Source: a virus. From it: DNA of 46,936 bases. Shown piece by piece: positions 12,140 to 13,491 of the stretch. The notes beneath the pieces were generated by a model that had not been told where the DNA came from, ran no database searches, and worked only from the letters and a program-made list of their open reading frames with translations. The stretch lies in the IMG/VR virus record IMGVR_UViG_3300028173_000017; one strand, written 5' to 3'. Made by a program: the position numbers and the translations under genes. Every line of letters starts with the position of its first letter. Position 1 is the first letter of the stretch.

Positions 12140-12970
12140 ATGAAACTCCTCCGCGAATATATTGGGATGCTACTTGCAGAAAAAACGCTATTGCTGTACC
12201 ATCGAACGAACAACGCCGCCGCGATACAGCGAAATGGTTTTACCTCGAAGATAAAAACGGGTTTTGGAACAGAGGTTTATTTTTCAACAAGTCCTAATGG
12301 CGAAGCAACGAATGATTATGGAAATGAGCTTGTGGCAATTGAAATACCTGAGCAATATGCAAACTTAGACGACGAATTTCCTGATGGCGAACGACACTAT
12401 TGGGTTTCGGCGAAAGATATTTCTCGGTTCGGCAATCTAGTAGAGCAAAAAATGCTTACCGAAAGAAAGCTAAGGGTTTTTGATTTTGATGATACGCTGG
12501 CGATGACCGATTCAATGATCATCTTGAACAAGGCATCCGGTGAGACGATAGAACAGACGCCAGCCGAGTGGTCGATCTATAAACCTGTCAAAGGTGACGA
12601 ATTCGACTATAGCCAATTTGGTGGTGCCCTCAAAAACCCGCAGGCAATCAAGGGGCACATGAAAATCCTTCGCAGGGTTTTGGCAGCCGGAAGCCAAGGC
12701 AGGCATGTGGTGATTTTGACTGCTCGAGGTGATGCCGCAAGGATAGGAATACTTGATTTCCTAGAAGACATTGGTATAGATACAAGCAGCATCGAATTGG
12801 TGACGCTAGGCAATTCAGACCCGCAAGTCAAAGCAGACTGGATTGAAGAAAAAATCAACAACGGCCATGACGACATTTACTTTATAGATGACTCAGCGAA
12901 GAACATAAAAGCCGTCGCCGCACTGGCGGGCAAATACCCAAAGACAAAACTGAGGGCTCAATTGGTATGA
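12140..12970 (+). CDS. two-domain protein: N-terminal domain with ART/Tpt1-like hints (LYHRT, FSTSP) plus C-terminal HAD-family phosphatase (VFDFDDTLA)
   Basis: HAD motif I DxDxT, motif II ILTAR, C-terminal DD; CTS-like N-terminus MKLLREYIGMLLAE. Confidence 0.6.
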   Translation: MKLLREYIGMLLAEKTLLLYHRTNNAAAIQRNGFTSKIKTGFGTEVYFSTSPNGEATNDYGNELVAIEIPEQYANLDDEFPDGERHYWVSAKDISRFGNLVEQKMLTERKLRVFDFDDTLAMTDSMIILNKASGETIEQTPAEWSIYKPVKGDEFDYSQFGGALKNPQAIKGHMKILRRVLAAGSQGRHVVILTARGDAARIGILDFLEDIGIDTSSIELVTLGNSDPQVKADWIEEKINNGHDDIYFIDDSAKNIKAVAALAGKYPKTKLRAQLV

Positions 12971-13491
12971 AGCTCCTCCGTGAATACATTGAAATACTCC
13001 TCGAGCGTGCCGTCGGTATCAATGACCTAGACGATGTGTATATCACCATTGACTCGTCTGCAATGGATGAGTACGGTGTACACATTTACTACAGCGACAA
13101 ATCAAAGAAGCCCATCGATCATGGCGGAACACCCCTCGGCGAGATGTACATTGACCCACCGGCATCAGTAGAAACGATGCATGATATCGCCGGGAACGTC
13201 TGGATGATAAACTTCGTCAGGGCATCAAAATCATGGGGACCGTTACTATACGATGTCGCCATGGAGTATGCCACAAAGGAAGGCGATGGGCTCATGGCCG
13301 ACCGCGACCCAGTTTCAGATGAAGCCCAAAATGTATGGAACCACTACCGTGATTACCGCCCGGATGTGACTGGAACGAATATTGATGAGGTCGGCGAATT
13401 CTCAGACACTCCCGCTCTTGGCATGTGCTGGACAAAACCTCCAACAACATTGAAAAAACTCAAATCAATGAAGAAACTATTAGAAAAGTAA
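12967..13491 (+). CDS. hypothetical protein, WGPLLYD family member 2, CTS-like N-terminus MKLLREYIEILLER
   Basis: ATGA overlap with the upstream gene; paralogy seen by eye. Confidence 0.55.
   Translation: MKLLREYIEILLERAVGINDLDDVYITIDSSAMDEYGVHIYYSDKSKKPIDHGGTPLGEMYIDPPASVETMHDIAGNVWMINFVRASKSWGPLLYDVAMEYATKEGDGLMADRDPVSDEAQNVWNHYRDYRPDVTGTNIDEVGEFSDTPALGMCWTKPPTTLKKLKSMKKLLEK

Follow-up and report, generated by a model that had tools for sequence, protein, structure and literature searches.

The stretch of DNA analysed here, referred to as the window, comprises 46,936 nt of the uncultured virus record IMGVR_UViG_3300028173_000017 and is, based on its gene content, an accessory-gene region of a large uncultured phage. 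In this region, we identified two classes of short N-terminal peptides (tags) shared by otherwise unrelated proteins. A class A peptide (MKLLREYI..LL.E) opens four genes, namely 12140, 12967, 33588, and 34241 (genes are named after the first nucleotide of their reading frame), and a class B peptide (MKI[ST]E.KLR..[IV]) opens two, 3863 and 23379, with one internal copy in open reading frame (ORF) 3024. Our analysis indicates that the tag is probably a portable capsid-targeting propeptide, cleaved after a glutamate, and thereby a functional counterpart of the capsid targeting sequence (CTS) of phage T4.

The sharing of N-termini is real and far above chance. Pairwise comparison of the N-terminal 20-mers of the 68 window genes (BLOSUM62 score over an 11-residue window) resulted in 27 pairs scoring at least 25, while random internal 20-mers gave a mean of 5.1 (maximum 10) and shuffled N-termini a mean of 3.5 (maximum 7). 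At a score of at least 30, nine pairs were observed compared with 0.9 and 0.5, respectively. After removal of the first 20 residues, the tag-bearing proteins revealed no similarity to each other in blastp apart from the family formed by 10857, 12967, and 33588, in line with a first-pass annotation of the same DNA, which had reported near-identical starts on non-homologous ORFs. The class A core motif matched the six-frame translation of the window four times with about 0.9 matches expected, and all four matches had an ATG exactly two codons upstream. Identical residues were encoded by different codons in 62–63% of cases in the window and in 36–55% in other arrays, indicating that selection works on the peptide; the conservation at the protein level with synonymous nucleotides, also noted in the first pass, was thus corroborated.

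All six clear members had already been listed in the first pass, together with 11485 and 8253, which were found to be plausible diverged copies. The N-terminus of 11485 scored 30 and 25 against 33588 and 34241, and that of 8253 scored 25–26 against class A members, its start at ATG 8253 being supported by the promoter-like motif GATATTTA 6 nt upstream. The start of gene 33588 is the ATG at this position and not 33474, and homologues of this gene elsewhere bear canonical tags. At 3863, MKISEQKLRKMIRE reached 18.5 bits against a model trained solely on other contigs. The internal motif copy that had been proposed for ORF 3024 could be located as well (Table 1). With respect to two weaker copies suggested earlier, 10857 seems to be a decayed tag, since its homologues in six other viral contigs (L006, L022, L024, L028, L035, and L049; L numbers denote the other viral loci and contigs compared) start with the canonical class A tag, while 2070 is a plausible but uncertain case that scored 31 to 10857 only and has an untagged homologue in L048. 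Two further listed genes were rejected, namely 10025 due to weak similarity and 35028, which starts with a basic stretch followed by a hydrophobic segment and lacks a terminal Glu. A Sec, Tat, or lipoprotein signal peptide was also rejected, since in the tag (LLREYIRELLTE) charged residues are interspersed with hydrophobic ones and a hydrophobic stretch is lacking.

Beyond the window, the tags were described as M-[KNSR]-L-L-R-E-Y-I-R-x-L-L-x-E for class A and M-K-I-[TS]-x-x-x-L-R-x-x-I-R-E for class B, while small hidden Markov models performed poorly on motifs so short. A search with the 12967 protein resulted in 170 homologues (E ≤ 0.001), which share only 31–44% identity overall, yet nearly all begin with MKLLREYIRELL.E, including the start variants MKLIMENWRKYLSE, MKLTLNKLKLLIEE, and MKITRRQLRQLIRE. 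Altogether, 148 class A ORFs (110 distinct) from 40 blastp families were collected. Their family-weighted information content was high through residue 14 and fell below 0.8 bit from residue 15. The terminal [LIVM]-x-E lies outside the pattern used to select these ORFs; with Glu at residues 13–16, it was present in 106 of the 110 distinct ORFs compared with 5.3% of control windows. The hydrophobic-x-Glu ending described in the first pass was seen as LAE, LLE, LTE, LRE, IRE, or LSE in the window and as I-R-E in class B; 8253 ends in Asp, and the rejected 35028 lacks a terminal Glu. A start codon was located exactly two codons upstream in 168 of 195 core matches.

The strict class A DNA pattern (M-x-LLREYIR-x-LL-x-E) gave 69 matches on 27 viral contigs, the longest of 293 kb, where fewer than 0.1 would be expected by our estimate (8.5e-14 per position). 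Scanning for class B revealed more than 118 viral stretches compared with about 3 expected, again by our own estimate, and class B matches were also present on seven of the 27 class A contigs. On the 260-kb contig L006, eight class A and four class B genes are arranged in tandem, including genes for a Fic protein and an RNase_T-type exonuclease, and similar tandem arrays of unrelated tagged genes were found on L007 (168 kb) and L048 (92 kb).

Regarding the proteins behind the tag (cargo), 12967, 33588, and 10857 have a GNAT fold, and the AlphaFold model shows no packing of the first residues against the GNAT domain. Further cargo includes a zeta/PNK-like kinase, a PNK-type HAD phosphatase, an RNase_T exonuclease, a Fic protein, and a HExxH protein; in 11485, HEIQH was read in the sequence, with no significant Pfam match. 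From motifs read in the sequences, putative 2H-phosphoesterase-like and R-S-E ADP-ribosyltransferase-like proteins may be added. The earlier assignment of 34241 as a P-loop kinase was confirmed by Pfam, while that of 12140 as a fusion of an ADP-ribosyltransferase-like domain and a HAD phosphatase held for the phosphatase part. The 12140 protein revealed similarities to DUF2608 (Pfam, 2.1e-6) and PHROG 415 polynucleotide kinase (9e-13) as well as weak HAD matches, and its HAD part shares 64% identity with ORFs in L016, L020, L027, and L038. The N-domain resulted in no Pfam or PDB sequence match and a single-sequence AlphaFold model with a pLDDT of 44, and its ADP-ribosyltransferase-like label was not confirmed.

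Homologous cargo was found with tag A, with tag B, or with none. The class A-tagged 34241 kinase has a homologue with class B in L007 and one with class A in L017, a 'DPMGF' protein has a class A tag in L006 but a class B tag in L007, and the class likewise differs between phages (A or B) for a nucleotidyltransferase family. The window proteins 23916 (HAD-like) and 31837 (PolyA_pol-type nucleotidyltransferase) are untagged, while homologues in L014, L019, L034, and L043 bear A or B. In the case of 23916, the tag precedes MDGV in the homologues, so that the window gene seems to have lost it; the real start of this gene (23916–24548) is possibly ATG 23958 (MDGVIVDF...), 8 nt after GATATTTA. Gene 31837–33588, encoding a 583-aa PolyA_pol/CCA-type nucleotidyltransferase, looks like a fusion, and its C-terminal third (from about residue 363) is encoded on its own in L014 and L038, with a class A tag. 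Based on these exchanges, recruitment to the head appears to be easily gained and lost. The same phage recurs in several metagenome assemblies, some of which harbor an additional 112-aa class B gene (MKISEQKLRKVIRE; L009, 13206–13544) between window genes 3024 and 3863, indicating that the set of tagged genes varies within the population.

A link to T4-type heads is provided by class B. In eight T4-type contigs, homologues of the gp20 portal (E values of 1e-22 to 1e-29) and/or the gp21 protease (1e-16 to 1e-21) were identified beside class B genes. L239 carries 11 class B genes around gp21, L213 encodes a 333-aa class B protein in scaffold position, and in L185 a pair of class B genes directly precedes the portal gene. 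Homologues of gp18, gp19, gp20, or gp23 were present in 12 further loci with class B. A parallel case is LR756500, a complete 462-kb huge phage, whose MVP homologue (see below for these vault-type proteins) is 41% identical to that of the window. In its head module at 225–230 kb, Portal_T4 (2.3e-70), Peptidase_S77 (6.3e-11), and Gp23 (8e-34) are encoded side by side, and the GELxHP and SSRxxGS motifs of the peptidase align to gp21. In this genome, 30 genes from 21 families at no fewer than 10 places start with MK[YF]I.xY[EK][ED]F[LIV]xE (tag MKYIKEYEEF[LI]xE), compared with 0.14 expected. Among 131,452 windows of the LR756500 proteome, 15 of the best 25 matches to the T4 CTS were tagged N-termini. 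As a side observation, the LR756500 protease comprises 632 aa and possesses a long C-terminal extension, which is possibly scaffold-like.

The T4 internal proteins IPII and IPIII begin with MKTYQEFIAE/A, while IPI begins with MKTFKEFTS...ITE/A. The first 10 residues of this CTS suffice for packaging, residues 4 and 7 being involved in targeting and residues 8 and 10 in cleavage by gp21 (PMC9026906), and the leader is all that the internal proteins of T-even phages have in common (PMC12373910). As in IPI, IPII, IPIII, and Alt, the tag described here is an N-terminal peptide of 10–19 residues that starts with MK, sits on otherwise unrelated proteins, and ends at a gp21 site, [L/I]-x-Glu. In both systems it is polymorphic and borne by accessory genes, and with Alt, T4 also has an enzyme as cargo. 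On the other hand, at least two interchangeable classes exist here, the cargo consists mostly of enzymes from at least 40 families instead of a few small inhibitors, and phages as well as hosts are uncultured, so that the tag is known from sequence alone. The likeness to the T4 CTS postulated in the first pass is one of a short, portable N-terminal element with an [LIVM]-x-E end and, for class B, a location beside gp20 and gp21, but not one of sequence, since similarity to MKTYQEFIAE did not rise above background.

According to the proposed mechanism, the N-terminal peptide would bind the scaffolding core of a T4-type prohead during head assembly, by which the attached protein would be enclosed. 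A gp21-type (S77) prohead protease would then cut after the Glu of the terminal [LIVM]-x-E and free the mature enzyme inside the capsid. On infection, the cargo would enter the host with the DNA and act ahead of phage gene expression. For the window phage, this would concern two GNAT-fold acetyltransferase-like proteins, a zeta/PNK-type kinase, the PNK-type phosphatase fusion, probably the HExxH protein, and some small proteins. As no head or protease gene of the window lineage was reached and T4 scores were at background level, we infer core binding, cleavage, packaging, ejection, and a T4-type head of the window phage by analogy.

Concerning searches for relatives and head genes, no relatives at the DNA level were found among 50,697 GenBank phage records using region 11000–14000 of the window. 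The last window protein led to contigs of 2–3 kb only, and a search with a homing endonuclease ended at an unrelated phage. The 104-kb contig k141_59151 of ERZ27250255 reaches about 80 kb beyond the upstream end of the window. Another 10 kb upstream of the window contained further tagged genes and no head genes, look-ups of P0111, P0042, P0018, and P0045 yielded accessory genes only, and a gp21 profile search resulted in T-even-like proteases only. The closest gp21 homologues among cultured phages belong to Microcystis phage Mel-JY01 and Flavobacterium phage immuto, both of which revealed no class B tags near the protease.

Several findings weigh against a capsid-targeting role. Compared with T4 MKTYQEFIAE, the window tags scored 14–17, which is within the background of internal windows, and they matched the LR756500 tag no better than internal sequences did. 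Homology of the window tags to either is therefore unproven, and the tag classes appear to be analogous rather than demonstrably homologous. Head proteins of T4 and LR756500 had no match in 347 kb of class A loci, and head, scaffold, or protease genes were found neither for the window's own lineage nor for any class A contig. About 15 convincing internal tag copies occur in multidomain proteins. Tagged cargo reaches 688 aa and includes enzymes, while T-even internal proteins are small by comparison, though T4 Alt is a packaged enzyme too. The GNAT cargo, a tag-plus-GNAT 60-mer, and the 'DPMGF' cargo resulted in no match among the GenBank phage records mentioned above. Finally, gene 23379 is preceded by a sigma-70-like TGGTATAAT element, which suggests early rather than late expression.

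As an alternative put forward in the first pass, the tag could load cargo into a vault-like shell of the phage MVP homologue (5552–8164), similar to the cargo-loading peptide of a compartment. More generally, the tags could be address labels for an intracellular or intracapsid body with MVP, i.e., a vault-like container or an inner body of a very large capsid. If this were true, RNA-repair and protein-modifying enzymes would be gathered there in a viral counterpart of vault cargo loading. Indeed, tagged genes flank the window MVP gene on both sides, with more of them upstream in L009, a class B gene lies immediately upstream of the MVP gene in L127 (MVP 70% identical), and seven tagged genes of LR756500 are located 4–10 kb from its MVP gene. 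However, 75 of 79 other MVP loci (1.57 Mb) are without the tag, the exceptions being L061 (a twin of LR756500), L074, L097, and L127. The 347 kb around class A clusters contain no MVP gene save that of the window's own phage, and the 80 best MVP contigs do not overlap with the 27 class A contigs. Furthermore, most tagged genes of LR756500 (23 of 30) are dispersed at a great distance from its MVP gene, and class B genes are located in T4-type head modules. The known cargo signal of eukaryotic vaults, in addition, is a domain of about 160 aa at the C-terminus, unlike the short N-terminal peptide here. Altogether, loading into an MVP shell is very unlikely, the wider notion of an MVP body is equally improbable, and the window MVP gene probably stands outside the tag system. 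Huge phages commonly encode MVP homologues (e.g., L046, L051–L129), which bear no tag themselves; they were detected on at least 117 IMG/VR contigs, the largest measuring 470 kb. A strict MVP DNA pattern found 27 contigs only, and its sensitivity was insufficient for testing co-occurrence. Earlier work has already described phage MVPs (bioRxiv 10.1101/2023.11.10.566534).

It is also unlikely, though less so, that the tag is an uncleaved docking or oligomerisation helix that gathers enzymes in a cytoplasmic complex or on a host target, e.g., for RNA repair or host takeover. Such a role would agree with the frequent resemblance of the cargo to RNA-end processing enzymes (PNK-like kinase and phosphatase, PolyA_pol/CCA-type nucleotidyltransferases, 2H-phosphoesterase-like proteins, RNase_T exonuclease), with the RNA ligase genes nearby, with internal tag copies in fusion proteins, and with the sigma-70-type promoter upstream of 23379. 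Yet a docking helix would need neither to begin at residue 2, as 168 of 195 matches do, nor to end in [LIVM]-x-E, as 106 of 110 do, and the crowding of class B genes around gp21 and gp20 would be left unexplained. The latter also applies to a regulatory N-terminal signal for degradation or timing, read by a protease or adaptor and having no role in packaging. While the N-terminal position and the strong conservation are consistent with it, nothing more specific is, the parallel in LR756500 is not accounted for, and to our knowledge no known degron resembles the tag; we regard this option as highly improbable. Even less credible is the absence of any signal, i.e., a common start left by recent duplication, gene conversion, or an element acting at the DNA or RNA level. 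Though some tagged genes are paralogous (12967, 33588, and 10857) and tagged genes are often adjacent, this is contradicted by codon differences at 36–63% of identical residues, by the 40 families, by conservation that ends exactly at residue 14, and by the occurrence of the same tag in contigs of many samples.

Compared with other known systems, encapsulin cargo-loading peptides also bring unrelated cargo into an HK97-fold shell by means of a short peptide, but they are usually C-terminal, have another motif, and are uncleaved. The Dar proteins of phage P1 possess N-terminal packaging signals, which are longer regions and depend on helper proteins. In the giant phages phiKZ and SPN3US, a gp21-related protease processes many proteins of the head interior by cutting after Glu, and the first 15 residues of the paralogues gp53 and gp54 are identical (PMC5694885). 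In contrast to the tag, the propeptides there are mostly longer than 100 residues with the motif [S/A/G]-x-E, and a short portable tag common to these proteins has not been described. For the MuF polymorphic toxins of temperate phages, in which a constant N-terminal module is combined with variable C-terminal effectors, capsid delivery has been proposed (PMC5576092); here, the constant part is a whole head-morphogenesis domain instead of a 14-residue peptide, and the toxins have immunity partners.

Some further shared N-termini were noticed. In the 469-kb contig IMGVR_UViG_3300028840_006907 (L098, 6424–16750), five genes near an MVP gene start with M[NSGD]R[YF]DI..[NG]KK, and phage immuto has shared N-termini of its own. 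Small genes around gp21 in the T4-type head modules of L174, L179, L213, L229, and L243 begin with M[IAV]KLK[DE]LL.E, often followed by ...FGEPLPTL; this start may represent a further tag class. At 44039–46605 of the window, six small paralogues in a tandem array have the common start MTPxQA..LT..M...PD.ST. This start was rejected as a tag, since the members are alike over about 100 residues and thus form a gene family.

With regard to expression signals, GATATTTA was found 10 times in the window compared with 0.92 expected. It heads tagged operons, with the site at 2036 preceding 2070, 8240 preceding 8253, 10844 preceding 10857–13491, and 31800 preceding 31837–34978, and is often located 5–7 nt before an ATG lacking a Shine-Dalgarno site. 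Possibly, the motif serves as a phage-specific promoter for leaderless mRNAs, and it may act in the middle or late phase, which would fit head loading. The sigma-70 extended -10 element TGNTATAAT (mostly TGGTATAAT) occurred 13 times, mostly at 23–44 kb, with 1.07 expected; these sites are probably early promoters for the host polymerase.

Almost all genes of the window lie on the + strand, many of them with Shine-Dalgarno sites. LR756500 homologues were found for only 10 of the 68 window proteins. The 41447 protein shares 60% identity with a protein of LR756500 and, judged from its N-terminal sequence alone, is read as T4 endonuclease V-like. A DUF7487 gene is located directly upstream of the adenylosuccinate synthetase gene both in the window and in the unrelated phage L141, as homing would predict.

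Table 1. Tags, cargo genes, and other features of the window, and tagged stretches of LR756500.
Feature	Position (nt)	Strand	Remarks
Class A tag MKLLREYIGMLLAE	12140..12181	+	ends L-A-E
Cargo gene 12140	12140..12970	+	276 aa; tag, N-domain of ~80 aa, PNK-type HAD phosphatase
Class A tag MKLLREYIEILLE	12967..13005	+	L-L-E ending at residue 13
Cargo gene 12967	12967..13491	+	174 aa; 'WGPLLYD' family, GNAT-fold acetyltransferase-like
Class A variant tag MNVLQNYVRQVLTE	33588..33629	+	ATG overlaps stop codon of upstream gene
Cargo gene 33588	33588..34244	+	218 aa; second GNAT-fold paralogue (blastp to 12967 and 10857)
Class A variant tag MKMLRQYIRRVLRE	34241..34282	+	
Cargo gene 34241	34241..34978	+	245 aa; P-loop kinase; Pfam Zeta_toxin 5.6e-15, AAA_33 5.7e-11
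Class B tag MKISEQKLRKMIRE	3863..3904	+	on 89-aa acidic protein (gene 3863-4132)
Class B variant tag MKITENKLRNVVKRALSE	23379..23432	+	on 162-aa protein (gene 23379-23867)
Internal class B copy LRITEQKLRQMVRN	3306..3347	+	in ORF 3024-3830; no start codon; Asn for final Glu
Probable diverged tag MSSLITFIKRILTE	11485..11526	+	on 217-aa HExxH protein (gene 11485-12138)
Possible diverged tag MNNNLREFVNEVLSD	8253..8297	+	on 225-aa protein (gene 8253-8930); ends in Asp
Gene 10857, probably decayed tag (MRSTYEGTKYLVECFQQ)	10857..11483	+	third GNAT-fold paralogue
Weak candidate tag MSNDSFLVECFSRLLWE, uncertain	2070..2120	+	on 317-aa protein; ends L-W-E
Tag peptide strings MKLLREYIRELLTE, MKITKSQLRQIIRE			
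Tagged-gene stretches of LR756500 (L008, L132-L140)	e.g., 11706-17016, 312960-318055		
MVP homologue	5552..8164	+	870 aa; untagged, flanked by tagged genes; Pfam MVP_shoulder 4.6e-21, Vault_3 1.1e-8
Promoter-like motif GATATTTA	2036, 8240, 9179, 10844 (10844..10851), 21110, 23943, 31800, 42662	+	
TGNTATAAT	14245-44019	+	12 sites
Two RNA ligases			window genes
IMP dehydrogenase/GMP reductase-family protein			window gene; Pfam IMPDH
NMN adenylyltransferase-Nudix, NAMPT, adenylosuccinate synthetase			window genes
GH25 lysozyme			window gene; with peptidoglycan-binding domain
Homing-endonuclease-like genes, many	13513-14238 (-), 21123-22007, 4231-5208, 9392-9865, 25480-26340, 40822-41436		several HNH/NUMOD3, DUF7487
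tmRNA (tag peptide ANDNSEYSYAQAA) and three tRNAs (Gly-GCC, Arg-TCG, Thr-GGT)	24626-24985 and 5194-5423		tRNAs just upstream of MVP gene

Capsid-targeting leaders on unrelated internal proteins are already known from T-even phages. New are the tag sequences, the strings of which were not found in the literature searched, the existence of two interchangeable classes, the enzymatic breadth of the cargo, and the occurrence in uncultured jumbo phages. If the capsid-targeting role is true, a string of 14 residues would predict, from sequence alone, which proteins are packaged in the heads of uncultured jumbo phages and injected, and this repertoire of at least 40 families would be far wider than the few small internal proteins of T-even phages. 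It would suggest that premade enzymes, perhaps RNA-repair ones, are delivered with the genome. The tag would also offer a handle for finding early-acting effectors of host takeover and counter-defence in metagenomes, as well as new packaging tags to load foreign proteins into phage capsids.

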